64,000 bases of DNA from positions 4,134 to 68,133 of the forward strand of contig JBCDCU010000001.1 in NCBI GenBank assembly GCA_039181265.1. Direction: 5' to 3'. The first letter of the stretch is position 1. Every line of letters begins with the position of its first letter. Positions 3,981 to 29,386 of the stretch are shown in pieces. Origin of the DNA: Pseudomonadota bacterium (lineage in GTDB: Bacteria > Pseudomonadota > Alphaproteobacteria > Rhizobiales > JACESI01). The position numbers and the translations under genes are program-made. The notes below the pieces were generated by a model. That model did not search any database. It was not told where the DNA came from and saw only the letters and a program-made list of their open reading frames with translations.

Positions 3981-4247
3981 TTAGACTCTTCTCATCAGGT
4001 TCACGATCGACCAGCCGACCACTGACGTGGCGCCAATCCAAATGACGAGGGCGGCATAATCGCTAAACATCAGAACCAAACCAATTGGCGGAACGATAAG
4101 GCATAGCCGTGACAAAAAAACAAAGAGTGATGATGAGCCTTCGGTTTTGGATTTCAGTGCACGGTGACGCTTGGGATCTGCAAAACAAAGGTAAGCCAAC
4201 CCAAGTGAACTGATCAGGACAGCGGCAAAAGAGAGCAATGCCGTCAT
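3981..4247 (-). CDS. Small integral membrane protein (3 predicted TM segments), partner of the PepSY-TM protein; DUF3325-like from memory
   Basis: 88 aa and hydrophobic. Its start overlaps the stop of the upstream PepSY gene by 4 nt. It has a paralogue at 23149-23412 (MTALLSFAAVLISSLGLAYLCFADPKRHR vs MTPVVTTVAILISVLGLSYLCYANPRRIK). Confidence 0.7.
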   Translation of the reverse strand: MTALLSFAAVLISSLGLAYLCFADPKRHRALKSKTEGSSSLFVFLSRLCLIVPPIGLVLMFSDYAALVIWIGATSVVGWSIVNLMRRV

Positions 4248-5812
4248 TCCGCAGGCTCCCCAGCAGCGATGAGCGCCCGTTTTTTCAAAAGCAGTCTACC
4301 AAGAACTACAAGACCGATTGCCACCAGGATGAAATCAATCCCGACCACAGTGAATTGTGCGTTCTCCAGCGATTCCACCCAACTCGATCCACTTGTGGCT
4401 TGTCTGATGATCGGTAAGGCAAGGCAGAGTAAACCTGCCAATGCTTGAAAAGCTGCAGTCGCGTAGGGAACGAGTAATCCAAAGGGGACGAGCAGGCACG
4501 CGGAGATTACAAACCCTGCTGGTGTCCACCAGGATGCTGTACCGTTTGAAACGGTCAGGAAATAAAAAACCGCTGTTGATAGGACGGCGAGCGGAAGTCC
4601 CCAGACCATTGTATCGATCGCTCGTCCATAGATGCGCCATGAAAGATTTTGTTCCCGCCGACGGACCCAGAGCTGCAATCCGCTAGCAACACCGAATGCC
4701 ATACCGAGGCCCAGCGCCAACCAAGAAACTCTGGACGCTAATCCTGCAAAATCACCGAAGTGTAACGGACCCATAAGGCTGAAGGCGGCAGACCCGGCTG
4801 ACGGAGCCGTCCCTAACGACGGTCTTTCGCCGACGAAAGTGCCATCCGTTCCGTTAAAGGCCAATTGCTTTCCTGTCAGGTTGCCATCTTGTGGCGGGTG
4901 AATGGTTGTTACCTCCATCTCCGTTGTCGCCCAGTGTTCAACAACGAACATCGTTGGTGTCGTCCCGGCCTGTCTTTTCGCTTCCGCCAGTATTGTATCG
5001 ATGTTTGCCCCTTTATGCGGGGACGCCTCTGCTGGTTCTTCATGTCCAACGAGTGTCTCTATCATGGCCATCTGATCGCCCTTAAAGGCAACCGTCGCAA
5101 CGACGGGTAATCCAACGGGAATGGCAAAACTGAAGAATGCACCGGTAAATCCAAGCACGATACTGAAGGGTAACATCCATGTTCCGATCAGTGCGTGGCG
5201 ATCACGCATATCGGCAAGCCTTATGAGTTTCGTAGGCGCATAGAAAATGTCCCGAAACATATGGCGGTGCATGAGGAAACCGGAGACCGCTGCAACAAGC
5301 ATGACAAGGCCGAGAACACCTGTCAGAAGCAATCCCCAGGGCTCGGGGATGTAAAGCCTCACATGGAGATCAACCAAAAAGCGTTCCAGAGCGTTGTTGG
5401 GATCTTGCGTGCGAAGGTCCGATCCAAATCCCTCTTTGACGTTCAAAACCTCGCCGGTCACCGGATTGAGATCAATGTCGACACCATAATCGTCCAGGCG
5501 CCCCACGTCCGGATTGTGCTTGTGAGTGTGGAAGAAGACCGTCAACATGCCGTCAGTTGCTTTCCATGCAGTCACTTCTTCATGGAATTCTTCGCTGACC
5601 GTCGCCGCGACTTTGCGAATATGGCCGTCGATAGGCTCGCTGAGCGTGGGGCTGAATTTTTCACCCCCTTGCGACCAAACGCCGATCTCATGGGCAAAGA
5701 CCGCGACCGCTCCTGTGAAGATCACAACATAAAGAAGAAGCCCGAGCAGAGTCCCAGACCAACCATGGATCGCAATGAGACGTTTCATACGAGATTTTGA
5801 AATCGAGACCAT
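4244..5812 (-). CDS. PepSY-associated TM-helix protein (PiuB/FoxB-like putative ferric-siderophore reductase)
   Basis: MVSISKSRMKRLIAIHGWSGTLLGLLLYVVIFTG is the family-typical N-terminus, and the protein is polytopic. It is collinear with the paralogue at 23409-24977. The start is moved to ATG 5812 by paralogue alignment. Confidence 0.85.
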   Translation of the reverse strand: MVSISKSRMKRLIAIHGWSGTLLGLLLYVVIFTGAVAVFAHEIGVWSQGGEKFSPTLSEPIDGHIRKVAATVSEEFHEEVTAWKATDGMLTVFFHTHKHNPDVGRLDDYGVDIDLNPVTGEVLNVKEGFGSDLRTQDPNNALERFLVDLHVRLYIPEPWGLLLTGVLGLVMLVAAVSGFLMHRHMFRDIFYAPTKLIRLADMRDRHALIGTWMLPFSIVLGFTGAFFSFAIPVGLPVVATVAFKGDQMAMIETLVGHEEPAEASPHKGANIDTILAEAKRQAGTTPTMFVVEHWATTEMEVTTIHPPQDGNLTGKQLAFNGTDGTFVGERPSLGTAPSAGSAAFSLMGPLHFGDFAGLASRVSWLALGLGMAFGVASGLQLWVRRREQNLSWRIYGRAIDTMVWGLPLAVLSTAVFYFLTVSNGTASWWTPAGFVISACLLVPFGLLVPYATAAFQALAGLLCLALPIIRQATSGSSWVESLENAQFTVVGIDFILVAIGLVVLGRLLLKKRALIAAGEPAE

Positions 5813-5831
5813 AATGTCGATCCTGAATATT

Positions 5832-6155
5832 TTATATGAGGGCCGAGCCGACGACTGCGGCTTCGACAAGTAAGATGAGGATGAAAACCAGCCCCGCTCT
5901 GAGCAGGTTCTCAGTGAGAATGGCGTAGAAGAAAAAGGCTGCCCATAGGGCGGGAAAAAGCAAAAGCGGAAAAACAATATGATCGATGCCGGCACTTCCC
6001 TGAGGCAGGGTGAGCGGCATGGCAGCCATAGTCAATAACGCAAGAACAATAGTTGCGGGACCTGCGAGCAACCACCTCGCAGCTAGACCTCGGTTCCACT
6101 GCCAATTCATGCGAGAGCCCGAAGAAATTGCTTCATCGATGGATTTACGTGCCAT
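5832..6155 (-). CDS. Small integral membrane protein upstream of PepSY-TM (DUF3649-like from memory)
   Basis: Hydrophobic 107-aa ORF, paralogous to 24999-25286 (RWLLAGP..MAAMPL.LPQG.AGIDH.VFPL). The start is uncertain; ATG 6110 is possible. Confidence 0.65.
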   Translation of the reverse strand: MARKSIDEAISSGSRMNWQWNRGLAARWLLAGPATIVLALLTMAAMPLTLPQGSAGIDHIVFPLLLFPALWAAFFFYAILTENLLRAGLVFILILLVEAAVVGSALI

Positions 6156-6393
6156 AACTCAACCTCGGTTGGATAAGATCTGTTTAGTCTTTTCAACAAT
6201 TGGGTGCGTATGTCATTGGCGGCACTCTTACCGTACTGCTCGCTAAAGAGCCTACACATGCCAGCGCCCTCCGACAATGATTGCGGTGCAATGAAGAATG
6301 TCGCAGGCCCCTCAGCAATTCTTTCTGTCGCTGGAACCATGGGCGAAACGGTAGGGCGCCGATAACAGAGGCTTGGTGCGGAGCAGGTCCTGA

Positions 6394-8745
6394 TCAAAAC
6401 GAGATCGTTCCGGCAACGCCAAAGGTGCGCGGTCGTCCCACAGTCACTGTGTTGTCGCCGAAATTCTCAGTGACAAACCGATTGTCCGCTACGTTATTGA
6501 TAAACCCGTCAATTCGACCAACGACCCTGTCACTGATACTGTATTCGTAGCCAGCGGCGAGGTCGACCACCACGTAGCTGTCAAGGTCTGGCACGTCTAT
6601 ATCGAGGAAGGTTGAGCCCACAAATCGCGCGTTGACTGAGGCAGAAAAACCGGAATCGGACGTATAAGAAAGGCTGCCATTTGCCGTTACTCCCGGTGCA
6701 CGAGGAAGATCAGCACCTTGCAACTCTGTGACAATTGGGCCGGCGTCGGTAATCTCCGTGTCAAGCAAGCCGAGCCCCGCACTTAGTGTCAGGCCATCCA
6801 GTAATTCAAAACTCCCGTCGAATTCCAATCCAATACCGCGGGCTTCTGGTACATTTCCGATGAGGAAGGCGCCGGGAGGATTGTCCGGTGCAGCGCCACC
6901 AACCTGAGCGTCCAAGAACCTATAATAAAAGGCACTTGCGTTCAGAGCCAGCCGGCCATCCAATTGCTGAGTTTTCACGAAAATCTCATGCTGCCTCAAG
7001 CGCTCTGAGCCAAACTCTGAAATTGCCCCACTCGGAGTGAAGATATCAAAATCAGTGCCGCCTGGACGAAACCCTTGAGAATAAGTGTATCCAATGCCGA
7101 GATTGTCATCAAAATCATATCTCAGACCGACCTTTGGAATAAAAGCGGTTTCGCTGACTGAAGTATCACTCACATTGGGCGTGGGTAAGCCAAAGGGCGT
7201 AAACGAGACGAAACGATCTCGATCGTCAATTTCGACGCGCGCGCCCGCTATGAGGGCGAGCTTGTCGGTAATGTCAAACTCCGCCTCACCAAATATACCA
7301 ATGTTGTTGATTTCAGCATCAAGAGTGAGTGGCAAGAAAGGAGTGGTATTTTCGCCTTCATCCGCCTGATTTTCAAAAGCCACACCAAACAGACCCTTTG
7401 ATAGGCGGCCAAAATCCTGAAATCTAACAAAGCCTTCCGCAACAATCGTTTCAGTGCTTTGCTCAAAATCAAAGAAGAAGTTCAGTCCAGGAGGAAAGAC
7501 AAAGGTGTTGTCGAGAAAGGCCGCTTTTGCTTCAAACACAACCCTGTCGGACAATTCATATTTGATGGATCCCGAATAAGTGCGTTGATCAATCTCCTCT
7601 AATGTCGAGTCAGGGTTGAAGGTCGACAATTCCAGCGCATCGCCTGGGGCATCAACTTCACCAGGTATGGACCGCGCAAAACTCGTCGTATCATCGACAC
7701 TGAACTTTACTTCCAAGCCAGGAATAGCCTTCGGTGTAAAGAGAACCTTGCCGCGGAACCGGCGAAATTCCTCATCCTCTGTGAAATCGGCACTTTCCGC
7801 CGACAGTCCGAAAGGGGGAGGCGCAGCAATTGGTAAAACTTCGACAAATGACTCGCCGTCTGACGCCTCTGCCGTAAAGCGTACTGCAAGTTGTTCATCG
7901 AGGATCGGTACATTGAAAAGGAGAGCCCCTCCAACGGTTCCGTCCTGATTGAAGAAGTTCAAGCGCGCTTTGCCTTCCAATTGGTTGGTCGGGTCTTTTG
8001 TCTGAACGCGCACGGCACCTGCAAAAGCGTTTCTGCCTGTGGTGGTAGCTTGCGGCCCCCGTGCAACCTCAATCGCTTCAACATCCCACACGCTGTTCAA
8101 TGAGGGGCCAGCTGTGATTGTCAGTGGTCGAGGAACCCCATCGACGATAATCGGCACTCGCGGCTGGGCACCGGTCGTAAACGAAGTTGCACCTCCAACA
8201 GGTGAACCATCAATACCTCTGATTGATGGCAAGCTACTACCTTCTTCGTTGAGGACATTCGGTATTCCTTGGATTGCTTCCCGCTGATCGAAATTTTGTG
8301 GCCGGTCAACATCATCGCTCAAAACAACAATGCTGGGCGTGATCTCCTGGAGGCTCCGCCCGATCTTTTCGCCTTCGACAATCACGACTTCATCCAGCAG
8401 AAAGTCGTTGTCCTGAGACGACCCGACGCCCTCCCGACTGTTTTCGGTTAAAGCGAAACTGCGGTCCGGGAGTTCCAGAAAAGAAAGGCCGGAGCCGGCC
8501 ACCATGGACTCTAAAGCTTCATCGACGGTCAGTTTACCCCTAACTGACTTGCTCTTCTTGCCGTGAACGAGGCGCGCATCTGCAAGGATTGCGTGTCCCG
8601 TCTCCCGACTTAATTCATCAATTGCCGCCGCAAGCGGCTGGGCTGGTACATCGATTGTTTGAGTTTCTTGTGCCTCAACCTCTACAAACCCCATTACCCC
8701 GAATGCGATGGACATTGCTGTCGCCATCAGCTTGTTTTTGAACAC
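6394..8745 (-). CDS. TonB-dependent outer-membrane transducer (FecA/FpvA-type, with N-terminal STN signalling domain), cassette 1
   Basis: Signal peptide; STN-like block IDVPAQPLAAAIDELSRETGHAI..LSFLELPDRSF; TonB-box/plug LLDEVVIVEGEKIGRSL; C-terminal GRPRTFGVAGTISF. GTG start aligned with the paralogues. Confidence 0.92.
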   Translation of the reverse strand: MFKNKLMATAMSIAFGVMGFVEVEAQETQTIDVPAQPLAAAIDELSRETGHAILADARLVHGKKSKSVRGKLTVDEALESMVAGSGLSFLELPDRSFALTENSREGVGSSQDNDFLLDEVVIVEGEKIGRSLQEITPSIVVLSDDVDRPQNFDQREAIQGIPNVLNEEGSSLPSIRGIDGSPVGGATSFTTGAQPRVPIIVDGVPRPLTITAGPSLNSVWDVEAIEVARGPQATTTGRNAFAGAVRVQTKDPTNQLEGKARLNFFNQDGTVGGALLFNVPILDEQLAVRFTAEASDGESFVEVLPIAAPPPFGLSAESADFTEDEEFRRFRGKVLFTPKAIPGLEVKFSVDDTTSFARSIPGEVDAPGDALELSTFNPDSTLEEIDQRTYSGSIKYELSDRVVFEAKAAFLDNTFVFPPGLNFFFDFEQSTETIVAEGFVRFQDFGRLSKGLFGVAFENQADEGENTTPFLPLTLDAEINNIGIFGEAEFDITDKLALIAGARVEIDDRDRFVSFTPFGLPTPNVSDTSVSETAFIPKVGLRYDFDDNLGIGYTYSQGFRPGGTDFDIFTPSGAISEFGSERLRQHEIFVKTQQLDGRLALNASAFYYRFLDAQVGGAAPDNPPGAFLIGNVPEARGIGLEFDGSFELLDGLTLSAGLGLLDTEITDAGPIVTELQGADLPRAPGVTANGSLSYTSDSGFSASVNARFVGSTFLDIDVPDLDSYVVVDLAAGYEYSISDRVVGRIDGFINNVADNRFVTENFGDNTVTVGRPRTFGVAGTISF

Positions 8746-8804: not shown

Positions 8805-8840
8805 TTACGTTTTTTTCTAAAAAAAGCTGACTTTTTTTAT
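8805..8840 (-). promoter_or_regulatory. Candidate ECF-sigma-dependent promoter of the cassette-1 receptor
   Basis: The minus strand reads GATAAAAAAAGTCA-N18-CGT. The same architecture is conserved in cassettes 2 and 3, in the FecR-stop to receptor-start spacer. Confidence 0.4.
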
Positions 8841-8850: not shown

Positions 8851-9768
8851 TCACTGCTCAGAAACGATCGTTACAAGAGGCGAAGCAGATCGAACTTTAC
8901 CGCCAGTGGCCGCGGCAACGGCTCTGAGTGCGTCAATGGGGCTTGAGAGGTTGAAGCGGCCAGCCGCGTCTTTATTCGCAAGGTCCGCGCTTACCACGAT
9001 CACCGGGCCTGGAAGTCTGCGGTCGATCATCGCAATCACCTCCCCAAATGTCATTCCTTCCGCAAGGATCAGGTCCTCGCGCCATGCGCCGACTGCGTTA
9101 TTATCACCCTGTTCAAGACTTGGTGCTCCATCATCGGACCACCTGAATTGATCACCCGCATCCAGGCGCCAGATTCGATCGCCTATGCGAACCATTACCT
9201 CTCCCACTGAAACACCGACGAGCAGTTGATCGCCAAGCTTCGCCACCTCGAACTCCGTCCCGAGGACCTCGACTGAAACGTCATTAGCGGCAACGACAAA
9301 CGGGCGATTGTCTTCCTGAACGTTAAAGTAGACTGCACCTTGCAAGAGCGTCACATGGCGGGTATCGGCGGCGGAATTGTCAATCACAGCGGAAGATGCA
9401 TCAAGAATGGCGATGTCGCCCGACGCAAGCATGATCGACCTTGTTTCGAACCGGGTCCTTTCATCGGCAAGGAAATACAGTGAAACGGGCTGGTAGAGCA
9501 CATAGAGCAGAGCGCTCACGATGATGAACACCAAGATGGACACCGAAGGCGGCCCTTTGGGCTTGGGCTTCAGCGCGAGTTTTGCTGCCTGAACTGCCTT
9601 TGCAACCTGATTGTATGCTTCACGTTCGGCTTCTCCGCGTGCGAGAAAGGCATCCCTGTTGCGTTGAGCCTGAAAATCGTCGGGATTTTCGTCGAGCCGC
9701 TCAAAAATATACGCAGCCTCTTCAATGCGACGCGAATGGTCAGGATCTGACCCGTCCTTATCTGACAT
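8851..9768 (-). CDS. FecR-family transmembrane anti-sigma factor / signal transducer, cassette 1
   Basis: Short cytoplasmic N-domain, a single TM segment (VSILVFIIVSALLYVLY), and a periplasmic FecR-type domain. Positioned between the sigma and receptor genes. Confidence 0.88.
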   Translation of the reverse strand: MSDKDGSDPDHSRRIEEAAYIFERLDENPDDFQAQRNRDAFLARGEAEREAYNQVAKAVQAAKLALKPKPKGPPSVSILVFIIVSALLYVLYQPVSLYFLADERTRFETRSIMLASGDIAILDASSAVIDNSAADTRHVTLLQGAVYFNVQEDNRPFVVAANDVSVEVLGTEFEVAKLGDQLLVGVSVGEVMVRIGDRIWRLDAGDQFRWSDDGAPSLEQGDNNAVGAWREDLILAEGMTFGEVIAMIDRRLPGPVIVVSADLANKDAAGRFNLSSPIDALRAVAAATGGKVRSASPLVTIVSEQ

Positions 9769-9839: not shown

Positions 9840-10319
9840 TTAACCGTTGAGGATTTTGGTGAGCTTGATCAGTGTGTCCATCACAAGACCGTGCGCCTGC
9901 GAGAGTGACATATCGAGCCGCTTGCTGATCTCCGCAAAGGTCAAACCATCAATAAACCGCATATGAAACGCCCGAACAGTGCGGTCAGGTAAGGTTTCCA
10001 GAAAGCCGACCACTCTTTTGAGCTCCTCGCGCGCAATAACAATTCGCTCAGAATCGAAATCGACATCTTCGAGAAGCTTCAGGTCCGATAAGATCCCGTC
10101 TTCCGTCTGCCGCGCTTTGAGCCAGTTCTTAGCAAGATTTGAGACGATTCTGCTGAAAATCGGTAAAGCCTTGTCGGACGGATAACTCTTATTTGCCCAA
10201 CGCAGCCAACTATCCTGAACGAGCTCTTCTGCAATTGCACGGCTTTTCACCATGCGTAAAGCAATTGCAATCAGACGTTCGCGTTCTGCTATAAAGGTTG
10301 TGAGGGCTGGATCCGCCAT
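9840..10319 (-). CDS. ECF (sigma-70 family, FecI-like) RNA polymerase sigma factor, cassette 1
   Basis: 159 aa. Region 2-like AEELVQDSWLRW and region 4 HTH LTFAEISKRLDMSLSQAH. Heads the sigma-FecR-receptor array. Confidence 0.9.
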   Translation of the reverse strand: MADPALTTFIAERERLIAIALRMVKSRAIAEELVQDSWLRWANKSYPSDKALPIFSRIVSNLAKNWLKARQTEDGILSDLKLLEDVDFDSERIVIAREELKRVVGFLETLPDRTVRAFHMRFIDGLTFAEISKRLDMSLSQAHGLVMDTLIKLTKILNG

Positions 10320-10454: not shown

Positions 10455-10480
10455 TGGCTGGCTTTTGAATTTGGCTGGCT
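10455..10480 (-). promoter_or_regulatory. Box A: TGGCTGGCT-N8-TGGCTGGCT direct repeat upstream of sigma-1
   Basis: Read directly; 136-161 nt upstream of the ATG at 10319. One of five related sites. Confidence 0.6.
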
Positions 10481-10667
10481 GGTGTCGCATTAGTGCGCGG
10501 TCGCCCGGAGTGGTCAACCCAGACGGGTTTCCGCAAAGGCTCTCTTCCCGCGACTGTGTTACCGCTGCAACATTCGTTTCGAAGGGCTCATCATGGCGCG
10601 AGATGGTTTTGTTCCTCCCCATCGTGGTGATGAGCGGGATACAACACAGAACAATCTCCCGGATTCA

Positions 10668-13058: not shown

Positions 13059-13094
13059 GATCGAGTTTGTCCTATGAAAAATGACTTTTTTTGT
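13059..13094 (-). promoter_or_regulatory. Candidate ECF-dependent promoter of the cassette-2 receptor
   Basis: The minus strand reads GACAAAAAAAGTCA-N18-CGA. Confidence 0.4.
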
Positions 13095-13175: not shown

Positions 13176-14093
13176 TTAGCGGTTCGAAACAAGCGTTCCG
13201 AGCGGTCCTGCCGACCTCACCGTTGCTCCGCTTGTCGCGGCAAGCGCCCTGAGCGCATCCATGGGACTGGTAAGGTTGAGGCGTCCCGAAACGCGTGTAC
13301 TCGCAAGCTCCGCGCCGATAATGATGACCGGGCCTGGAAGCCTGCGCTCAAGAACCTCAACAACTTCACCAAAGGTCATCCCATCGGCGACAAGGAAGCC
13401 TTCCCGCCATGTTGCGATCGTGTCAAAGCCAATGGCTTCAAGAATAGGATCCTCACCATCCGGCAATTGGAGGCTTTCACCGGAGCCAAGACTGAAGACA
13501 CGGCCAGCCCGTCGGACATCCACCGCCCCCTCGACCACCGCGACAAGAACCTTGTCGTCGAGCCTAGCAACCTCAAACGCCGTGCCGGTCACCTCGATAG
13601 CGGTTTCGTCTACGTCCACCACAAACCGCTTTTCGCCACTTTGGACTTCGAAAAAGGCGGCGCCTTTTAAAAGCGTCACGCGGCGAACATCCGTATCTGA
13701 TGCGTCGACCAGAGCGGTCGATGCGTCAAGATGCGTCCTATCACCGGAGGCGAGCGCTATTTGCTGCGTATCGAGGGCTGTGATTGCATCTGCACGCCAG
13801 TAAATCGAAACCGGCTCATAGGCGGCGTAGAGGGCAGTACCAGCCGCTATTGCGACAAGGATTGAGAGATAAGGCGGTTTTTTTGGTTTTGGCGTCAGCG
13901 CAAATTTCGCGGTTTTGACTGCACGCAGGACGCGTGCATAGGTCTTTCGTTCAGCCTCACCACGCGCAAGGAATGCCTCTTTTTCCCGTTGCGCCTGCAG
14001 ATCCTCGGGATCTTCGTTAAGGCGTCGAAAAATTTTGGCGGCCTCCTCGGCGCGCTGCACCTCATCCGGGTCCGGGTCATCAGGGTCGGACAT
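13176..14093 (-). CDS. FecR-family anti-sigma factor, cassette 2
   Basis: Paralogue of 8851-9768. The start is set to ATG 14093 (MSDPDDPDPDE). That reproduces the 70-72 nt sigma-FecR spacer seen in the other two cassettes. The ORF track extends to 14126. Confidence 0.85.
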   Translation of the reverse strand: MSDPDDPDPDEVQRAEEAAKIFRRLNEDPEDLQAQREKEAFLARGEAERKTYARVLRAVKTAKFALTPKPKKPPYLSILVAIAAGTALYAAYEPVSIYWRADAITALDTQQIALASGDRTHLDASTALVDASDTDVRRVTLLKGAAFFEVQSGEKRFVVDVDETAIEVTGTAFEVARLDDKVLVAVVEGAVDVRRAGRVFSLGSGESLQLPDGEDPILEAIGFDTIATWREGFLVADGMTFGEVVEVLERRLPGPVIIIGAELASTRVSGRLNLTSPMDALRALAATSGATVRSAGPLGTLVSNR

Positions 14094-17744: not shown

Positions 17745-17749
17745 GATCC

Positions 17750-20873: not shown

Positions 20874-20880
20874 AGGCACT

Positions 20881-21219
20881 ATGATCGCTATCATCCTGAC
20901 ATCTGTTCTTCTTCTGGCTGCGTTTTCAGCGTTCGTCTATGCCGCCCGGCGCGCCGGTAAAACGACTGCAAACACGATCAACGTACTGTCAGGTCTGAGC
21001 GGACGATTAGTCGGCTCAGGTTTGTTATTCGCAAGCCTTCTGCCGGTCGTCTCAATCTTCGGACTCGAGATCGGATTACCAATCTGGTTGGGCCTTGCGA
21101 CGGTCAGTGCTGTCTGTGTTCTTTGGGTTGGGGTGAGGCGCAACCTCTTTATTGTCATGCTGGGAATTTTTCCGGTCGCATCGAGCGCATTTTGCTCAGG
21201 TGCGGCTTTTGCCTGCTGA
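20881..21219 (+). CDS. Small integral membrane protein
   Basis: Hydrophobic ORF of about 112 aa directly after the receptor stop. ATG 20881 is preceded by GAGG. Confidence 0.55.
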   Translation: MIAIILTSVLLLAAFSAFVYAARRAGKTTANTINVLSGLSGRLVGSGLLFASLLPVVSIFGLEIGLPIWLGLATVSAVCVLWVGVRRNLFIVMLGIFPVASSAFCSGAAFAC

Positions 21220-21257
21220 CCGATGATGATCGAACATGAAACTCTAGAGGAACATTT

Positions 21258-21512
21258 TTGCTGCGCTTACTTTGCATTTTGATCATTTCTGCGATTGCGA
21301 CGATCCTGCTGGCGTCTGCGGTGATCATTCACCTTCCTTTTGATCGCGGTGACACGCTGATCTGGTCGGGATTGATGGTGCCGATCATATGGGCTTGCCT
21401 GGTCGTCTTTGCCTACTGGTACGACCGGGCGTGGCGAGGTTTCGCGGTCCTCGGCGCGGTGACTGCTGTTTCCGCACTCCTTATTGTTTTTCGAGATAGC
21501 GGAGGCACTTGA
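21258..21512 (+). CDS. Small integral membrane protein (TTG start)
   Basis: 84 aa with 3 hydrophobic segments; GAGGAA lies 6 nt upstream; the end overlaps the PepSY gene start by 4 nt. Confidence 0.55.
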   Translation: MLRLLCILIISAIATILLASAVIIHLPFDRGDTLIWSGLMVPIIWACLVVFAYWYDRAWRGFAVLGAVTAVSALLIVFRDSGGT

Positions 21513-23059
21513 GAATGAATCGTGACCGGCTGAAGCGGCTATACCACCTCCATTCTCTCATCGGCATAGCCTTCGGCTGGATGGTTTTCGTCGTCGTCTT
21601 TTCCGGCATCCCGGCTCTATTCTACGAAGAAATGAAAACCTGGGAGGATCCGGCCAACCGCATCGTATTGCAGCAGGAGCCAATCGAACTTCTACCGCTT
21701 CTCGAAAACCTCATTGAGGAAGAGGCGAAGGGCAAAGAGATCGAGTCGATTTTCTCTTTGCTCCCGACGGCAATGCACCCCTTCTACGAACTGCGTTTAC
21801 GGGCCGAGGATCCTCAGACAGGAGATCATATTGAGCTCGTTCGGAAATGGAATCCGAACGATGGCATGCCGATTGCCGAACGGGGTGAAGGGTTCTCGAC
21901 CTGGCTCACCGACTTCCACCGAAACTTTATGATCGAAGGGACGGTCGGACGGGCCCTTGTCGGATTAGTCGGTGTTTTTCTGCTGATCTCGGTGGTGACC
22001 GGCGTTCTTACGCACCGGAAAATGATCGCTGAAATGTTCACATGGCGCTTGGATCGGTCGGTCCGTCTGAAATGGCAGGATACCCATAAAATTCTTGGTC
22101 TCTGGGGGCTCCCTTACGCAGCGATGATCGCCTTTACCGGTGCGTTCCTCGGTCTTCTTGTGATCATGCTGCCAGCGACAGCTTTGTTGGTTTTCAACGG
22201 TGACCGTGAAGCCATTGGGGATGCGTTAAGTGGGCCACCAGTGGTTGAGACCGGGGTCATGTCCGAGATGCATTTGTTTAATCCGCTTCGTGAGCGCGCG
22301 GCCGAAGCGGTCGGCCGTATGCCGGAACGGCTCACTATTCAAAGATGGGGTGATGAAAGCGCTCACTATGTGTTCCTTTATAAGATCGAAGGCCATTTGC
22401 TGCGCTATGGAAGTTATGTGGTCAGCGGTTCTTCAGGAGACTTTATCGAAAACCGTCTGACACAAGGCCCTGGGGCTGCCTGGCGGGTGGTCTCATCAAT
22501 CACGCCGCTCCATTACGCCACCTATGGCGGCATATGGCTTAAGGTTCTTTATGCGGTTCTTGCCGTTGGGCTTTGTGTTGTGATTGCGACTGGTTCAATG
22601 ATGTGGCTTGAACGGCGCCTGCACGGAAATGAAGGAAGATGGTCGAACACGACCTACAGGATACTGGGTCATCTGACGACCGGAATTATGACTGGGGTAA
22701 TTCTGACGTCTGCAGCACTCTTTCATGTCGATACCGTCATTTCCGTAGACCCGGAAAATCGATTGTTCTGGATCGGTGTGAGTTATTTTTCCATCTGGAT
22801 CCTCGCGATTGGTTACACGCTCCTGCGGCGCAATGATTATCGCGCCTGCCGGGAAATCCTTGCTGCATCGGCCTTGTTTCTCGTTGCGATACCGTTGTCG
22901 AATGCAGTGTTTAAAGGGGCGGCGGTGTCCCATGTATATGCGCCGGAACATGCGTTCGTTTGGGGCGTCGATCTTGCCGGTATTGTTCTTGGTATTCTTA
23001 TGATCGTGGTGACTTTCTATCTGCCTCGAAAGCGGATGGTCGGCATGAAATCGGCCTAA
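21509..23059 (+). CDS. PepSY-associated TM-helix protein (PiuB-like)
   Basis: LKRLYHLHSLIGIAFGWMVFVVVFSGIPALF is the family-typical N-terminus; polytopic, 516 aa. Confidence 0.85.
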   Translation: MRMNRDRLKRLYHLHSLIGIAFGWMVFVVVFSGIPALFYEEMKTWEDPANRIVLQQEPIELLPLLENLIEEEAKGKEIESIFSLLPTAMHPFYELRLRAEDPQTGDHIELVRKWNPNDGMPIAERGEGFSTWLTDFHRNFMIEGTVGRALVGLVGVFLLISVVTGVLTHRKMIAEMFTWRLDRSVRLKWQDTHKILGLWGLPYAAMIAFTGAFLGLLVIMLPATALLVFNGDREAIGDALSGPPVVETGVMSEMHLFNPLRERAAEAVGRMPERLTIQRWGDESAHYVFLYKIEGHLLRYGSYVVSGSSGDFIENRLTQGPGAAWRVVSSITPLHYATYGGIWLKVLYAVLAVGLCVVIATGSMMWLERRLHGNEGRWSNTTYRILGHLTTGIMTGVILTSAALFHVDTVISVDPENRLFWIGVSYFSIWILAIGYTLLRRNDYRACREILAASALFLVAIPLSNAVFKGAAVSHVYAPEHAFVWGVDLAGIVLGILMIVVTFYLPRKRMVGMKSA

Positions 23060-23148: not shown

Positions 23149-23412
23149 TCAAATGGCTGACATGATTCTTGTCACCGACCATCCGATGACCAGGATTGCT
23201 CCGATCCAGATCGCGAATGCTGCAATGTTGTGAAAGACGAGTGCGAGTGCCAAAGGGGGCAGTACCAGGCAGCATACCGAAATCCAGGAAAGGAGGGTGG
23301 ATGCGCTTGTTTCAGATTGATGGCGCTTAATGCGCCTTGGATTGGCGTAACAGAGGTAACTAAGCCCCAGCACGCTGATGAGGATTGCGACAGTGGTCAC
23401 AACTGGGGTCAT
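23149..23412 (-). CDS. Small integral membrane protein, paralogue of 3981-4247
   Basis: The start is set at ATG 23412 by paralogue alignment. It makes a 4-nt overlap with the PepSY stop, as in cassette 1. Confidence 0.7.
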   Translation of the reverse strand: MTPVVTTVAILISVLGLSYLCYANPRRIKRHQSETSASTLLSWISVCCLVLPPLALALVFHNIAAFAIWIGAILVIGWSVTRIMSAI

Positions 23413-24977
23413 TCGGCCGGTTTCCCTGCGGTTTTGCGTGGCATCCAATTTTGAAAAGTCTTGGTAAGTAGGGTCAAGCCGCAGAGTATCAGTATGGCAT
23501 CTGCTGCAATCACGGTGAGCTGAACATTCTGGATCAGTGTTATCCAATCCGCGCCCGTTATGGATTGCCTAAGAATTGGCAATGATATGCAGAGCGCGAT
23601 AGTCAGACTTCGCATCAATGAACCCGCTGAGCGGAAGGACAAGCCAACCGGGATAAGGATCAAGGCGGTGATGACAAATCCGGCGGGCGTCCAGAACGAC
23701 GCTGAGCCGCTCGGTATGCTCACAAAATACGACAACGCACTGACAAGCATACAGATCGGCAGCCCCCATATCAGGGTATCAATTGCCCTTTCGTAGATGA
23801 GCCATCCTTGGCTATCTGCCCGACGGCGCACCCAGAATTGCAGTCCGCTTGCAACCGTATAGGCCATGCCAAGGCCGAGGGCGAACCAGATAATCTTCGA
23901 TGCCAATCCGGAGAAATCACCGAAGTGCAAAGGACCCATGAGGTCGATCGCTGCGGAACCAAGTGAAGGGCTTGTGCCGAACGACGGTATCTGGCCAATA
24001 AACGAACCGTCCATGCCATTGAAGGCCAATTGTTGACCCGTCAAATCGCCGTCCTGCGGGTTGTGCAATGTTATCAGCTCCATGGCAGATGTGCCCCAGT
24101 TCTCGATGGTGAGCAGGGTGGGAGCAGTTTTGATCCGCGCTGTTGCATCCTGAAGGACGGTATCAATGCTCACGCCATGATGCGGTGTGGTCTCGCTGGC
24201 ATGCTCATGCCCGACGAGGGTCTCCATCATCGCCATTTGATCACCCTTAAACGCAACGGTGGCGACGACCGGCAGACCGATTGATTCCGCGAAACTGAAG
24301 AAGGCGCCGGTAAATCCAAGCACAAGGCTGAACGGCAACAACCATGTACTGACCAGCGTATGGCGATCGCGCATATCAACGAGCCTACGGAGCGTTTTTG
24401 GCGCGTAGAAGATGTCCCGGAACATATGACGATGCATCAAGAAGCCTGAGACAGATGCAGCAAGCACGAGGAGACCGAGAACGCCGGTAAGGATCAGGCC
24501 CCAGGGTTCCGGAATATAGAGCCGCACATGCAGATCAATCAGGAAACGCTCCAATGCATTGCTCGGATCAGCATTCCTTAACCAGGAGCCAAAGCCTTCC
24601 TTTCGTGCCAGCGTTTCGCCGGTTTCCGGATTGAGGTCGATATCGACACCATAATCGTCTATCTGCCCCGTCTCCGGATTCTGTTTGTGGGTATGGAAGA
24701 AGACGGTCAGCGTTCCGTCTGTTCCCTTCCAGATGCTGATCTCCCCATAAAACTCTTGATCAACAGTCGCTGCGACTTTGCGAATATAGGCATCGATCGG
24801 CTCGGTGAGTGTGGCGCTGTATTTCTCTCCACCTTGAGACCACAGGCCAATCTCATGAGCAAAAACGGCAACGGCCCCGGTGACGATCACAACGTATAGG
24901 AGAAGCCCCAGAATCGTGCCCGACCAACCATGGATCGCTACCAGACGTTTCATGCGTGATTGTGAGATCGCGACCAT
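23409..24977 (-). CDS. PepSY-associated TM-helix protein, cassette 3
   Basis: Collinear with 4244-5812 (MVAISQSRMKRLVAIHGWSGTILGLLLYVVIVTG). ATG 24977 is preceded by GGAGAA. Confidence 0.87.
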   Translation of the reverse strand: MVAISQSRMKRLVAIHGWSGTILGLLLYVVIVTGAVAVFAHEIGLWSQGGEKYSATLTEPIDAYIRKVAATVDQEFYGEISIWKGTDGTLTVFFHTHKQNPETGQIDDYGVDIDLNPETGETLARKEGFGSWLRNADPSNALERFLIDLHVRLYIPEPWGLILTGVLGLLVLAASVSGFLMHRHMFRDIFYAPKTLRRLVDMRDRHTLVSTWLLPFSLVLGFTGAFFSFAESIGLPVVATVAFKGDQMAMMETLVGHEHASETTPHHGVSIDTVLQDATARIKTAPTLLTIENWGTSAMELITLHNPQDGDLTGQQLAFNGMDGSFIGQIPSFGTSPSLGSAAIDLMGPLHFGDFSGLASKIIWFALGLGMAYTVASGLQFWVRRRADSQGWLIYERAIDTLIWGLPICMLVSALSYFVSIPSGSASFWTPAGFVITALILIPVGLSFRSAGSLMRSLTIALCISLPILRQSITGADWITLIQNVQLTVIAADAILILCGLTLLTKTFQNWMPRKTAGKPAE

Positions 24978-24998: not shown

Positions 24999-25286
24999 TC
25001 AAGAAAGCGCCAGACCAATGACAGCGGCATTGAAAACGAAAAGGACCGCCAGAATGGCGGTTGCCCGAACCATGTTTTCTTCAAGAACAACGTAAAAGAA
25101 AATAACGGCCCAGATTGCTGGAAGCAGGATCAGTGGGAAGACGAGATGGTCGATCCCGGCGTTGCCTTGTGGCAAAAACAACGGCATCGCAGCCATCGTC
25201 GCGACTGACAAAATGACCGCACCAGGACCCGCAAGGAGCCACCGCATCACCCCGTTTCTATTCCCTCGCCCTGTCTTACCCATCAC
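24999..25286 (-). CDS. Small integral membrane protein, paralogue of 5832-6155
   Basis: 95 aa, hydrophobic, with conserved blocks shared with the cassette-1 copy. Confidence 0.65.
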   Translation of the reverse strand: MMGKTGRGNRNGVMRWLLAGPGAVILSVATMAAMPLFLPQGNAGIDHLVFPLILLPAIWAVIFFYVVLEENMVRATAILAVLFVFNAAVIGLALS

Positions 25287-25434: not shown

Positions 25435-27759
25435 CTAAAATGACAGAGTACCGGATATCCCGAAGGTACGCGGGCGACCGACGACGACAAAGCCTTCTGC
25501 AAAATCAGCCGTGATGTAACGATTATCAGCAACGTTGTTGATGAACCCGTCGATCCGGCCCACCACCCGGTCATTGATTTTGTGCTCATAGCCCGCAGCA
25601 AGATCGACGACGACATAGCTATCCAACGCCCCTTCACCCAAGTCATCGACGATTGAGCCTACGAAGCGTGCGTTGACAGATGCGGAAAGGCCAAAATCGG
25701 ATACATAGGAAAGACCGCCATTTGCCGTGACGCCCGGCGCATCGGGGAGGTCCGCGCCAAGGGACGCCGCAGCTACTCCGACAGTACCCGTGACATCTGT
25801 GATCTCAGTGTTAAGCAAGCCGAGGCCGGCACTTAAGATCAAGCCGTCCAGGATCTCAAAGCTGCCATCAAGTTCCAGGCCGAAACCGCGGGCTTCCGGA
25901 ATATTTCCGACGAGGCCGAATAAAGAGGAAGCCTCGGATTCCGGCGCCGCCCCAACGACTTGAGCATCCATTAGTGTGTAGTAAAAGGCACTGGCATTCA
26001 GAAGTAATCTGCCATCCAGTTGCTCCGTCTTGACGAAAACTTCATGCTGATTCAGGCGCTCTGAATCAAATTCGACGACTAGTCCCGTCGGATCAAAGAA
26101 ATCAAAATCGACGCCACCTGGACGAAAGCCCTGGGAATAGGTGTACCCAACGCCGAGATCATCATTGACGTCATATCTGAGACCGACTTTTGGAATAAAC
26201 GCCGTTTCACTGATAGATGTATCGGTTCCAACTCCGGCAAAGGCGAATGAACGATCACGACTGTCAATCTCAACGCGTGCACCCGCTATGAGGGTCAGTT
26301 TGTCAGTGATGTCGAATTCAGCCTCTCCGAAGATACCGATATTTTTGATGTCGCCATCAACGTCGATCGCCAGGAACGTATCGTTGACGGCATCATCGAC
26401 CTGGTTTTCATAGGCGACACCGAACAGGCCCTTGGAAAATCGGCCGAGGTCTTTGAACGTCACGAAACCTTCGGCTGTGACGGTTTCGGTGCTTTGTTCA
26501 AGATCAAAAAGGTCACTCAGCCCCGGCGGAAATCGGAAGGTGTTGTCCAGAAAAGCTGCTCTGCCTTCAACGGTGATACGGTCCGACACCTCGTACTTGA
26601 CCGAGCCCGAATAAACGGTTTGATCGTTCTCTTCAAACTCCGGGCTAAGGAGAAAACTCGACCGTACCAACGGATCGCCAGGGGCGTCGACGATACCGGG
26701 CGTTTCAAGCCCGGAACTGGATGTATTGTCGACAGTGAACTTCAATTCCAGTCCGGGCACGGCTTCCGGTGTGAAGAGCACTTTGCCGCGAAAACGGCGG
26801 AATTCTTCATCCTCGATGACGTCAACCGCTTCTGCTGAAACGTCCCCTCCGAGCGCGAACGGCAAAACTTCGACAAAGGATTCGCCATCAGACGCCTCAG
26901 CCGTGAAACGAACAGCGAGTTGGTCATCAACGATCGGCACGTTGAGAAGGAAAGCGCCACCAATGGTCCCATCCTGATTGAAATAGTTTATGCGTGCTTT
27001 GCCCTCCAATTCGTTGGTCGGATCTTTTGTCTGGATGCGAACGGCCCCGGCAAGAGCATTTCGGCCGGTTGTCGTTGCTTGCGGACCACGCGCGACCTCA
27101 ATTGCTTCGACATCCCAAACGCTCGCTAGTGAGGGTACGGCGCTGCCTACCAAAGGCCGTGGCACGCCATCAATAATAACGGGTACACGCGGTTGAGACC
27201 CTGTCGAAAGCGCTGGCCCACCTATGATGTTCGTTCCTTGGACACCCCTGATCGATGGGAGAGAGTCTCCCTCCTCATTGAGAACGTTCGGAATACCTTG
27301 AATGGCTTCGCGTACGTCAAAGTTTTTCGGTGTGTCAGCTTCCTCCCCGAGAACCACAATACTCGGAGTTACTTCTTGCAGGCTTCGACCAATTTTCTCG
27401 CCCTCGACAATGACAACTTCATCGAGCAGGACGTCCCCATCCTGCGAAGACGCGGCCTCGGTTAGCGTGAATGTGCGATCTGGGAGTTCAACAATGGAGA
27501 GGCCGGAACCTTCAACCATCAATTGCAGCGCCTGGTAGGTTGTTAACTCGCCTGCAACCGCGCGACTGGTCTTACCAAGCGTCAGGCGCCGACTGCCAAT
27601 AATCGCTCGGCCGGTTTCAGAACTCAATTCACTGATTGCATTGTTGAGCGGTTGCGCGGGGACGTCGATTGGTTGCGTGTCTTGCGAGAGCCCCTGTGCG
27701 GTTCCCATTATCACCAGACTCAATGACATCGTTGTTGTCATCAGCGTATTTCTAAACAT
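25435..27759 (-). CDS. TonB-dependent transducer with STN domain, cassette 3
   Basis: 774 aa, collinear with cassettes 1 and 2 (IDVPAQPLNNAISELSSETGRAI, LLDEVVIVEGEKIGRSLQEVTPSIVVL, ..GISGTLSF). Confidence 0.92.
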   Translation of the reverse strand: MFRNTLMTTTMSLSLVIMGTAQGLSQDTQPIDVPAQPLNNAISELSSETGRAIIGSRRLTLGKTSRAVAGELTTYQALQLMVEGSGLSIVELPDRTFTLTEAASSQDGDVLLDEVVIVEGEKIGRSLQEVTPSIVVLGEEADTPKNFDVREAIQGIPNVLNEEGDSLPSIRGVQGTNIIGGPALSTGSQPRVPVIIDGVPRPLVGSAVPSLASVWDVEAIEVARGPQATTTGRNALAGAVRIQTKDPTNELEGKARINYFNQDGTIGGAFLLNVPIVDDQLAVRFTAEASDGESFVEVLPFALGGDVSAEAVDVIEDEEFRRFRGKVLFTPEAVPGLELKFTVDNTSSSGLETPGIVDAPGDPLVRSSFLLSPEFEENDQTVYSGSVKYEVSDRITVEGRAAFLDNTFRFPPGLSDLFDLEQSTETVTAEGFVTFKDLGRFSKGLFGVAYENQVDDAVNDTFLAIDVDGDIKNIGIFGEAEFDITDKLTLIAGARVEIDSRDRSFAFAGVGTDTSISETAFIPKVGLRYDVNDDLGVGYTYSQGFRPGGVDFDFFDPTGLVVEFDSERLNQHEVFVKTEQLDGRLLLNASAFYYTLMDAQVVGAAPESEASSLFGLVGNIPEARGFGLELDGSFEILDGLILSAGLGLLNTEITDVTGTVGVAAASLGADLPDAPGVTANGGLSYVSDFGLSASVNARFVGSIVDDLGEGALDSYVVVDLAAGYEHKINDRVVGRIDGFINNVADNRYITADFAEGFVVVGRPRTFGISGTLSF

Positions 27760-27819: not shown

Positions 27820-27855
27820 CATTCGAATGTGTTGCTAAAAATTGATTTTTTTTCT
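27820..27855 (-). promoter_or_regulatory. Candidate ECF-dependent promoter of the cassette-3 receptor
   Basis: The minus strand reads GAGAAAAAAAATCA-N17-CGA. Confidence 0.4.
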
Positions 27856-27918
27856 CAAGTTTGAGAATTCCGCGGCACAAGTGCGGAGCATACCGGCGTA
27901 AAACAGGTAAGGTTGGTG

Positions 27919-28836
27919 TTAGTTGTTCCTCACAATTGTTATGATCGGCGACGCTGACGTGACAGTAGCACCGCTGCCAAGTGCCAGGGCCTCAAGGGCG
28001 CCAAGCGGATTTCCAAGGTCCAAGCGACCATCAAATTCCTCGTTGGCAAGGTCTTTATCAAGAATAATCACAGGCCCCGGAATGCGCCGATCAAGGATTT
28101 CGACCACCTCTTGAAACGACATGCCATCGGTCACGATGAGACCGTCCCGCCATGTTGCCATATCCGTAATTGGCAGATTCTCGATAATGGGCTCTAGACC
28201 ATCCCGGTATCGGAGCTGGTCCCCGGCCTCAAGGCGCACAGCTTTGTTGTGAACGACAACATCCACGGTTCCCTTTGCAACAGAGACCACGAGCTGGTCT
28301 TCGAATCTCGTCACTTCGAATTCTGTGCCCACCACCTCAACGATGACGTCATCAATCCGAACACGGAACGGTTGGGATTGTCGTTCTACCTGAAAATACA
28401 CTGCTCCTCTAAGAAGCGAGACTTGACGTCGAATGTCGTTGGTTTGATCTATTATCGCGCTGGAGGCATCGAGCGTGATGGTATCGCCGGACAGAAGGTC
28501 AACCGTTCTAATTTCGCCAGCGGTGATGTGATCCGCGCGCAGATACACTGAGATCGGCTCGAACATCATATAAAGGAAACCGCCCAGTATAACCGCCAAT
28601 AGAATGGAAACACGCGGCGGGCCTTTGGGTTTTCGGCCAAGCGCTTTTGACGCAAGGCTAACACCTTTGAGTAATCGGGCGTAGGTGTCGCGTTCAGCGT
28701 CGCCTCTGGCGAGAAAGGCGTCGCGGTCGCGTTGCGCCTGAAGGTCGTTCGGGTCATCTTCGAGGCGTTGATGAATATCGGCCGCTTCAATCGCCCGCTT
28801 AAACTCTTCTGGATCCAGGTCATCTTGATCCGCCAT
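27919..28836 (-). CDS. FecR-family anti-sigma factor, cassette 3
   Basis: 305 aa, collinear with the other two FecR-like proteins. Confidence 0.88.
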   Translation of the reverse strand: MADQDDLDPEEFKRAIEAADIHQRLEDDPNDLQAQRDRDAFLARGDAERDTYARLLKGVSLASKALGRKPKGPPRVSILLAVILGGFLYMMFEPISVYLRADHITAGEIRTVDLLSGDTITLDASSAIIDQTNDIRRQVSLLRGAVYFQVERQSQPFRVRIDDVIVEVVGTEFEVTRFEDQLVVSVAKGTVDVVVHNKAVRLEAGDQLRYRDGLEPIIENLPITDMATWRDGLIVTDGMSFQEVVEILDRRIPGPVIILDKDLANEEFDGRLDLGNPLGALEALALGSGATVTSASPIITIVRNN

Positions 28837-28906
28837 TAATTCCGGCCCCGATCTTCAACGTCTTTTACCTGGGTAACGTAAAGCGCGGCGAAATGTTTTG
28901 CGAAAA

Positions 28907-29386
28907 TCAGTCTTTGAGTACGCAGGTCACAACAGCGAGTGCATGTTTTACAAGGCCATGTGCCCGAAAACGAGAGAGATTTAGTCGCGTCCCGATTTCA
29001 GTGAATGTCAGGCCGTCCACCAGGCGAAGCCGGAATGCGGTAACGGTTTTCTCAGGCAGGCTTTCGAGGACTCTGACGACGCGAAGAAGCTCCTGGCGGG
29101 CAATGACAATGCGCTCCGAGTCGACATCAACATCTTCATAAAGCTTCAAATCAAATAGAATTTGTTCTTCCGTCCGGTTTGAACGGGTCCAGTCTTTTGC
29201 AAGGTTCGATACAATGCGCCGGAAAATCGGAAGCGCTTTGTCGGATGGGTAGTTCTTATGCGCCCAGCGCAGCCAGCTGTCTTGAACAAGCTCTTCAGCA
29301 ACGGCTCTGCTACGGACTACTCGAAGGGCGACCGAGATCAGTACCTCTCGTTCTTTGATAAAAGTTGTAAGGGCTGGATCTGCCAT
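28907..29386 (-). CDS. ECF sigma factor (FecI-like), cassette 3
   Basis: 159 aa; MADPALTTFIKEREVLISVALRVVRSRAVAEELVQDSWLRW. Confidence 0.9.
   Translation of the reverse strand: MADPALTTFIKEREVLISVALRVVRSRAVAEELVQDSWLRWAHKNYPSDKALPIFRRIVSNLAKDWTRSNRTEEQILFDLKLYEDVDVDSERIVIARQELLRVVRVLESLPEKTVTAFRLRLVDGLTFTEIGTRLNLSRFRAHGLVKHALAVVTCVLKD

Follow-up and report, generated by a model that had tools for sequence, protein, structure and literature searches.

Three old paralogous cassettes resembling FecIRA and FoxIRA cell-surface signalling systems in a probably alphaproteobacterial marine lineage

The closest described relatives of the genes analysed here are FecI-FecR-FecA of Escherichia coli, for ferric citrate, and FoxI-FoxR-FoxA-FoxB of Pseudomonas aeruginosa, for ferrioxamine. 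FecR and FoxR both cleave themselves at a Gly-Thr site (PMC9249621). Experiments on a PupB/PupA chimera demonstrated that an N-terminal signalling domain still signals when it is moved to another barrel (PMC9249621). In Caulobacter crescentus, hiuABC combines a TonB-dependent transporter (TBDT), a FoxB-like PepSY protein and a small membrane partner in a proposed reductase complex, a tested precedent (PMC12424826). Here, we describe a 64,000-nt stretch of contig JBCDCU010000001.1 (the window, i.e. the whole stretch, to which all coordinates refer), probably from an alphaproteobacterial marine lineage, that carries three related cassettes, all on the minus strand. We consider it very probable that these are three paralogous cell-surface signalling (CSS) systems of the FecIRA / FoxIRA(B) type, old, individually maintained and sharing one TonB energiser.

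The gene order is that of the Fox system: sigma factor, FecR-type regulator with a Gly-Thr motif, transducer with an STN domain, and PepSY_TM protein. With the Fec system the cassettes share the three-component logic, the FecR Pfam domain and profile matches to FecA, and with hiuABC the arrangement of a receptor followed by a PepSY_TM and a small membrane protein. The systems are of an ordinary, well-known kind; many FecIR-type systems per genome are common, and the triplication itself adds little. More notable are the probable natural grafting of the signalling half onto different receptor bodies and a repeat element found before every sigma operon and the energiser operon.

Gene content, domains and fold of the cassettes

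Each of the three collinear cassettes consists of an extracytoplasmic function (ECF) sigma factor, a FecR-like protein and an STN transducer of 774-783 aa, and cassettes 1 and 3 run on into three further genes, smallA, PepSY_TM and smallB. The features are the following, with the basis of each assignment in brackets where it applies (ORF, open reading frame).

3981..4247, minus strand: smallB1, 88-aa membrane protein, end of the cassette-1 unit (ORF; 45% identity to smallB3)
4244..5812, minus strand: PepSY_TM protein 1 (PepSY1), 522 aa, FoxB-like putative inner-membrane ferric-siderophore reductase (PF03929, 161 bits)
5832..6155, minus strand: smallA1, 107-aa membrane protein (54% identity to smallA3)
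6394..8745, minus strand: TonB-dependent transducer 1, 783 aa, with STN, TonB box, plug and 22-strand barrel (Pfam, AlphaFold2)
8807..8837, minus strand: conserved block 5' of transducer 1, AAAAAAGTCA-N18-CGT, candidate sigma-dependent promoter
8851..9768, minus strand: FecR-like sigma regulator 1 (FecR1), 305 aa, Gly-Thr at residues 170-171 (PF04773)
9840..10319, minus strand: ECF sigma factor 1, 159 aa (Sigma70_r2 and Sigma70_r4 above the Pfam cut-offs)
10457..10482, minus strand: AGCCAGCCA-N8-AGCCAGCCA direct repeat 5' of sigma 1, operator or leader element
10668..13001, minus strand: TonB-dependent transducer 2, 777 aa (ORF and homology)
13061..13091, minus strand: conserved block 5' of transducer 2 (pattern match)
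13176..14093, minus strand: FecR-like sigma regulator 2 (FecR2), 305 aa from ATG 14093 (Pfam and homology)
14166..14645, minus strand: ECF sigma factor 2, 159 aa (ORF and homology)
14777..14799, minus strand: AGCCAGCCA direct repeat 5' of sigma 2 (pattern match)
23149..23412, minus strand: smallB3, 87 aa (homology to smallB1)
23409..24977, minus strand: PepSY_TM protein 3 (PepSY3; 66% identity to PepSY1, orthologue in the sister genome described below 93% identical)
24999..25286, minus strand: smallA3, 95 aa (homology to smallA1)
25435..27759, minus strand: TonB-dependent transducer 3, 774 aa (Pfam and homology)
27823..27852, minus strand: conserved block 5' of transducer 3 (pattern match)
27919..28836, minus strand: FecR-like sigma regulator 3, 305 aa (ORF and homology)
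28907..29386, minus strand: ECF sigma factor 3, 159 aa (ORF and homology)
29516..29542, minus strand: AGCCAGCCA direct repeat 5' of sigma 3 (pattern match)

Homology between the copies was used to choose among alternative reading frames. FecR2 most likely starts at ATG 14093 and not at GTG 14126, PepSY1 is the 522-aa frame and not the 583-aa ORF from 5995, and smallB3 is the 87-aa frame and not a 132-aa ORF. An earlier note on this DNA had already described the three cassettes, the extension of cassettes 1 and 3 by a three-gene PepSY-TM module, peptide blocks identical in the transducers, and the position of cassette 2 next to the promoter region of sigma 1. This description holds: the ORFs are present at the coordinates it gave and the Pfam domains agree, PF03929 is found in both modules, the quoted blocks occur in all three transducers, and the 348-nt spacer between the end of cassette 2 and the start of sigma 1 contains the sigma-1 upstream elements.

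Sigma factor 1 matches Sigma70_r2 with 28.1 bits (cut-off 24) and Sigma70_r4 with 29.3 bits (cut-off 24.1), and the FecR-like proteins match PF04773 with E-values of 1e-14 to 4e-15. In the FecR alignment a hydrophobic stretch is seen at about residues 75-98, i.e. the layout of a protein with one transmembrane segment and a cytoplasmic N-terminus. The Gly-Thr pair belongs to a motif, 'GTxFEV', that is invariant in all eleven aligned FecR proteins. The C-terminal region gives a sub-threshold match to PF21304 (T3S_SPI-1_N0), with 19.5 bits against a cut-off of 27.

In the transducers, Pfam identifies STN, Plug and TonB_dep_Rec_b-barrel. Transducer 1 was modelled with AlphaFold2 on an alignment of 53 sequences; the model has a predicted local distance difference test score (pLDDT) of 86.9 and a predicted TM-score (pTM) of 0.82. 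According to this model, residues 29-101 form the STN fold (beta-alpha-beta, twice), followed by a disordered linker (103-123), the plug and a 22-strand barrel. Its best Foldseek matches are FoxA, at the top, FpvA and FyuA, with about 17% sequence identity to FoxA. A profile search against the PDB also matched FyuA, FoxA, FpvA and FecA, and in addition the isolated signalling domains of FecA, PupB, PupA and HasR (E-values of 1e-9 to 1e-11); matches to OprC are far weaker.

Age, divergence and mixed histories of the copies

The closest relative of the region is found in a sister metagenome-assembled genome (MAG), GCA_039180865.1 (isolate P01_G01_bin.29), where the orthologue of transducer 1 is 93% identical; the next relatives, in Pelagibius and other MAGs, have at most 50% identity. 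Window 3982-30173 aligns collinearly with the sister contig (80-93% nucleotide identity), which has orthologues of all three cassettes (sigma factors 93-97%, FecR 87-92%, transducers 82-93% identical). The triplication therefore predates the split of the two species.

Between the copies the amino-acid identity is 68-71% for the sigma factors, 48-52% for FecR and 67-70% for the transducers, and between copies 1 and 3 it is 66% for PepSY, 54% for smallA and 45% for smallB. The nucleotide identity is about 66-73%, exact matches between copies are at most 17-20 nt long, and a repeat search returned triplicated blocks with 63-78% identity and the expected spacing. Paralogues differ at synonymous sites by a proportion (pS) of 0.73-0.84, which means saturation. 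Between window and sister, dS is 0.16-1.5 and omega (dN/dS) 0.03-0.2 for the sigma, FecR, transducer, PepSY and energiser genes. Due to this low omega we conclude that all three cassettes are maintained by purifying selection and that none is decaying. Since dS is saturated between paralogues, dN/dS per segment was not computable for them, and the orthologue omega and the contrast between paralogue and orthologue identity were used instead.

The earlier note had read the cassettes as a recent duplication and raised the question whether recombination between the two outer 6.3-kb units (cassettes 1 and 3 with their modules) adds or removes the intervening 13 kb. A recent triplication under diversifying selection, in which these units recombine and delete or amplify the intervening DNA, would agree with the collinearity and common orientation of the six-gene units and with a divergence centred on the extracellular loops. 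However, synonymous sites are saturated, and at the level of whole genes the orthologue omega gives no sign of positive selection. The blastn high-scoring segment pairs between the two units are 69-72% identical, the longest exact match is 17 nt, and the sister keeps all three cassettes and the intervening genes in the same order; recombination between the units is therefore unlikely. Neither part of this reading is supported, and we regard a recent, recombining triplication as barely credible compared with an old one.

To locate the divergence within the transducers, long connections in the model were taken as extracellular loops and short ones as periplasmic turns. The identities per region are:

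Extracellular loops: 49% between paralogues, 85% between orthologues
Barrel strands: 73% between paralogues, 90.5% between orthologues
Plug: 78% between paralogues, 91.5% between orthologues
STN: 65% between paralogues, 95% between orthologues

Positions identical in all three transducers are depleted in the loops (Fisher p = 2.6e-7), and all indels fall in loops L2, L5, L6, L8, L9 and L11, the linker or one plug loop, so that the concentration of receptor divergence in the loops, expected from the earlier note, is borne out. On the modelled loops, such divergence together with constraint inside each orthologue pair fits different ligands, and judging from the sequences the three systems most likely sense different ones. 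It does not imply positive selection, because in any receptor of this kind the loops are under the weakest constraint.

For the regulators the same comparison between paralogues gives:

FecR N-terminal, sigma-binding part: 59-65%
FecR periplasmic domain: 46%
FecR linker: 35%
FecR C-terminal domain: 54%
Sigma-2: 77%
Sigma-4: 60%

All these FecR and sigma regions are 80-97% conserved between orthologues. The divergence of FecR is spread over its whole length and is not focused in the N-terminal sigma-binding part, as had been claimed; this part is the best conserved, at 59-65% compared with 35-46% in the periplasmic part. The contact surfaces diverge between systems: for sigma-4, the FecR periplasmic part and STN the identity is given as 60-65% between paralogues and 94-96% between orthologues. 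The cassettes are therefore a defined set of near-cognate partners for testing how parallel CSS pathways are insulated.

In neighbour-joining trees of plug plus barrel, the three transducer bodies form one clade with 100% bootstrap support, each paired with its sister orthologue. These trees point to triplication of the receptor bodies by duplication within the lineage, with the branching order (2,(1,3)), and agree with the earlier preference for duplication over independent acquisition. Had the three cassettes been acquired independently by horizontal transfer from different donors, this could account for the lower GC content of the iron region (0.51-0.53, right flank 0.56-0.58), for its place between an integrase-bearing segment and a tRNA-Arg gene with flanks unlike those of the sister, and for the fact that the trio is not grouped in the sigma and FecR trees. 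Apart from the body clade, however, PepSY1 and PepSY3 are mutually closest relatives (100% bootstrap), the STN domains of all cassettes of the lineage form one clade, and a truncated tRNA fragment in the sister is better explained by a separate insertion there. We therefore hold independent acquisition to be very unlikely. A megablast search of cassettes 1-2 against plasmids gave no match.

Besides these orthologues, the sister has at least five further cassettes with the same sigma and FecR family, two in tandem at locus L004, two in tandem at L005 and one at L006. The trio thus belongs to a lineage family of at least eight cassettes. The parts of these cassettes do not share one history. In the plug and barrel trees a Pelagibius receptor adjoins the trio clade (100%) and the receptors of L004-L006 lie outside. 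In the tree of STN and linker (an alignment of 100 columns), all cassettes of the lineage form one 100% clade and the Pelagibius STN is placed elsewhere. The star-like sigma and FecR trees do not recover the trio as monophyletic relative to L004-L006. The pairwise identities follow the same division:

STN: 62-69% within the trio, 55-70% to L004-L006, about 30% to Pelagibius
Plug: 76-85% within the trio, 49-55% to L004-L006, 60-67% to Pelagibius
Barrel: 64-70% within the trio, 42-48% to L004-L006, 53-56% to Pelagibius

A junction is seen directly in the receptor of the first L004 cassette (L004a). In the final 20 alignment columns of the linker ('...AASSQDGDVLLDEV') its identity to transducer 3 is 100%; directly past the TonB box it is 68% identical to TBDT4, the receptor of a fourth module in the window (listed below), and 16% identical to transducer 3. 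Its identity to TBDT4 before the TonB box is 29%. TBDT4 itself has no STN domain according to Pfam, and its body is 27% identical to that of transducer 1. The conflicting trees and the switch in L004a together indicate at least one recombination event, and probably several, between signalling half and receptor body at the TonB box. The half made up of sigma, FecR, STN and linker would then belong to a separately expanding family, joined to at least three kinds of receptor body.

The conflict could also be a rate artefact, with fast evolution of STN and FecR in Pelagibius and slow evolution elsewhere, and with whole cassettes always duplicated together. The low bootstrap support in the sigma and FecR trees and the short STN and linker alignment would be expected under such an artefact. 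So would the behaviour of a possible mosaic within the trio. Raw site patterns (sigma, FecR, STN and plug favouring cassettes 1 and 2, barrel and PepSY favouring 1 and 3) gave a chi-square p of 3e-5, but after polarising with outgroups the signal, including that between plug and barrel, is mostly cassette-3 autapomorphy; the derived plug sites number 5, 2 and 0, a weak hint only. Still, the conflicting nodes have 100% bootstrap support each, the switch in L004a is abrupt for both partners, and TBDT4 itself has no STN domain, so that a pure rate artefact appears distinctly improbable and recombination at the TonB box remains the preferred reading.

In another genome (MAG P01_H01_bin.100, locus L054, positions 1678-14300), two complete sigma-FecR-TBDT-smallA-PepSY-smallB units stand in direct tandem. 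Compared with the window, their sigma factors are 49-59% identical and their receptors just 29%, and the locus appears to be a further case of signalling and receptor halves diverging independently.

Regulatory elements, energiser operon and reductase modules

The pattern AAAAAA(G/A)TCA-N17/18-CG(T/A) has three matches in the window, compared with 0.07 expected, one in each spacer between FecR and transducer genes. The sister orthologues and L006 have the block as well, and a strict regular expression for it gave no match in L004, L005, L054, L077 and L031. It is a likely candidate for a sigma-dependent promoter region. The transducer leaders (8746-8806, 13002-13060 and 27760-27822, minus strand) share a GTTGA(G/C)TCAGTGA-like conserved motif and, after it, a short hairpin, whose stems differ between cassettes yet stay paired (GAGAGA...TCTCTC in one form, GAAAGA...TCTTTTC in another).

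A second element is the direct repeat AGCCAGCCA-N5-9-AGCCAGCC(A), with four matches in the window against 0.03 expected. It precedes all three sigma genes and the p156-exbB-tonB operon, and is invariant across eight aligned upstream regions. The repeat directly follows a TTGAC(C/G) hexamer and an AT-rich -10-like hexamer, and about 95 nt further upstream of the sigma genes an invariant TGTTGCA-N8-CAC is found. The AGCCAGCCA repeat also lies 5' of the L004 sigma genes. The leaders of sigma 3 and of both L004 cassettes are 70-79% identical over 260 nt while the synonymous sites of the adjoining genes are saturated, so the leaders are under constraint. The repeat matches neither the Fur nor the Irr consensus, and the TGTTGCA-N8-CAC element is unlike both as well; the iron-responsive operator (IRO) box of RirA was not scanned. 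An Rfam search of window 1-32000 found nothing except a tRNA, and a generic scan for sigma-70 promoters and terminators found no more sites than in shuffled sequence.

That one repeat precedes both the sigma operons and the operon of the TonB energiser suggests that iron uptake in these marine bacteria has an uncharacterised regulator at its top level. We tentatively suggest, with somewhat less confidence than we would need to favour it, that a portable signalling half in at least eight copies has been grafted by recombination at the TonB box onto at least three unrelated kinds of receptor body, and that all copies, together with exbB-tonB, stand under one non-Fur master regulator acting at the AGCCAGCCA repeat in the transcription start region. 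If true, this would be the natural counterpart of the PupBA chimera experiment. The lineage itself could be useful as a clear natural example of the assembly of new siderophore-sensing circuits, with an exact joint at the TonB box: a sigma/FecR/STN module already present is attached to another receptor body, after which the contact surfaces diverge.

Between cassettes 2 and 3 lie the energiser operon and, on the plus strand, the fourth module, which has no sigma or FecR gene:

15088..18220, minus strand: energiser operon (NCBIfam and Pfam; sister annotation MotA_ExbB, ExbD twice, TonB_C)
15088-16224, minus strand: TonB
16221-16643 and 16645-17028, minus strand: ExbD, two copies
17040-17744, minus strand: ExbB
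17750-18220, minus strand: 156-aa protein (p156)
18252..18274, minus strand: AGCCAGCCA-type direct repeat 5' of the p156-exbB-tonB operon
18561..23059, plus strand: fourth module without sigma/FecR (Pfam)
18561-20873, plus strand: TBDT4, no STN
20851-21219, plus strand: DUF3325-like small protein
21258-21512, plus strand: second small membrane protein of the module
21509-23059, plus strand: PepSY_TM4

TonB is long (378 aa) with an extended Pro/Glu/Lys-rich spacer, and the 156-aa protein is kept beside ExbB in Pelagibius and several MAGs. Transducer 2, the 156-aa protein and TBDT4 stand out by a dS of about 1.1-1.5 between window and sister, compared with 0.2-0.7 in neighbouring genes; this unevenness suggests that, since the species split, some segments of the region have been exchanged with other lineages.

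PF03929 is matched with 161-176 bits by the genes 3' of cassettes 1 and 3 and by PepSY_TM4. The only solved relative of PepSY1 is FoxB (7ABW, E = 2e-6), and in a phmmer alignment with 7ABW the motifs IHGW, AHEI, DLHVRL and PLHFGD of PepSY1 stand opposite LHRY, HHEI, EFHHNL and PIHGG of FoxB; given the PepSY_TM architecture, these histidines are predicted to ligate haem. SmallA, smallB and the 156-aa protein match no Pfam or NCBIfam family; sub-threshold matches are DUF3157 for the 156-aa protein and DUF3325 for the small protein of module 4. Homologues of smallA and smallB flank PepSY genes at eight other loci (L006, L014, L023, L028, L040, L054, L076 and L077). In Pelagibius, Nisaea and other loci smallB homologues come after the PepSY gene, with smallA kept upstream. 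The complete sigma-FecR-transducer-smallA-PepSY-smallB unit recurs in Nisaea (L077) and in the L054 tandem, and Pelagibius (L014) has the same unit with different or unrecognised regulators. The unit often stands beside p156-ExbB-ExbD (L014, L023, L040 and L076).

Two segments of the window are cleanly absent from the sister. The first, 4876-6250, covers smallA1 and about the N-terminal 60% of PepSY1, and the second, 20964-23168, the entire small-protein and PepSY_TM4 module. The cassette-3 PepSY module is the only intact one there, suggesting a partial interchangeability of the reductase modules.

By analogy with the established FecIRA / FoxIRA model we infer a mechanism, as well as the ligand class, the iron control and the extents of the operons. 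A shared upstream signal would activate each sigma-FecR operon, probably via the AGCCAGCCA repeat and the TGTTGCA elements. The FecR-like regulator would cross the inner membrane with its N-terminus holding the ECF sigma factor, cleave itself at the conserved Gly-Thr bond and contact, through its C-terminal domain, the STN domain of its own transducer. Binding of the cognate ferric (xeno)siderophore to the extracellular loops, together with engagement of the TonB box by TonB, would send the signal on to FecR; FecR would be degraded, and the sigma factor would start transcription of the transducer gene at the conserved block 5' of it. The transcripts of cassettes 1 and 3 probably extend through the genes of the FoxB-like PepSY_TM reductase and both of its small membrane partners, and the single TonB-ExbB-ExbD2 set between the cassettes would energise all receptors.

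A number of observations weigh against this assignment. The Pfam STN match is borderline, with 29.2 bits against 28.4 in transducer 1 and none at E <= 0.01 in transducer 3, and the receptor family is divergent, with 142 bits in TIGR01783 compared with a cut-off of 223. In the block upstream of the transducers the 'CG' is not conserved in cassette 2 of the sister, and -35 and -10 hexamers are not assignable. The best Fur boxes match at 10-12 of 19 positions, as do those in random 350-nt windows (mean 10.7, maximum 14), and no iron control element (ICE) box of Irr above background was found; iron control is therefore assumed from gene content alone. All trees are neighbour-joining only. Finally, the metal is uncertain, as PepSY_TM proteins beside TBDTs also serve copper uptake, and PepSY_TM genes follow CrtA-type copper TBDTs in more than 75% of loci (PMC12914433).

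The substrate might thus be a copper complex, haem or another metallophore instead of a ferric siderophore, with the PepSY_TM proteins acting in copper handling. Both the lack of a Fur box and the NCBIfam scan, in which no receptor reached the level of a siderophore-receptor equivalog, would be in line with this. However, the best matches in sequence and fold are the siderophore receptors FyuA, FoxA, FpvA and FecA and not OprC, the known copper systems are under CruR and not under a sigma/FecR pair (PMC12914433), and the histidine motifs align with those of FoxB. We consider a substrate other than a ferric siderophore unlikely, and retain siderophore-responsive CSS systems as the interpretation.

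Flanks of the region and comparison with known systems

The right-hand limit of synteny with the sister is a tRNA gene:

30126..30202, minus strand: tRNA-Arg(CCT) (ARAGORN and Rfam)

The homology ends inside this gene, of which the sister keeps the 3' 49 nt only, followed by unrelated DNA. The fragment looks like an attachment-site (att) remnant of another element inserted there. Immediately to the right of the tRNA, window 30313-35107 holds [NiFe]-hydrogenase maturation genes (HypD, HypB/CobW-like and a HypE-like member of the AIR synthase family) along with a response regulator dependent on sigma-54 (32777-34255). The left flank (window 1-3981) carries a P4-type integrase (133-1479), a 273-aa protein and a Crp/MarR-like helix-turn-helix protein (2717-3370), where the sister instead has a major facilitator superfamily (MFS) protein, Lactamase_B, a sulphur-transport protein and Sox genes. 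Whether the iron region is an island integrated at the tRNA may be doubted: the 3' end of the tRNA occurs only once in the window, the integrase and the tRNA are at opposite ends, and the fragment in the sister fits an insertion in the sister genome instead.

Compared with the Fox system, the transducer has just about 17% identity to FoxA, no Fur box is found and the sigma factor is short, at 159 aa. FoxB has 382 aa; the PepSY protein here has 522 aa, and its gene stands between those of two conserved small membrane proteins. The Fec system differs in its FecBCDE ABC transporter, which is not found downstream here, where the reductase module stands instead, and the N-terminal domain of the FecR-like proteins is without the conserved tryptophans that PMC9249621 describes for FecR and PupR. 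The hiuABC genes are regulated by Fur without sigma and FecR, whereas the cassettes described here have both regulators and two small partners, one on either side of PepSY. Compared with the PupB/PupA chimeras of Pseudomonas, the swap appears to be natural, with its junction at the TonB box, and to have taken place within a single-lineage family of at least eight cassettes.

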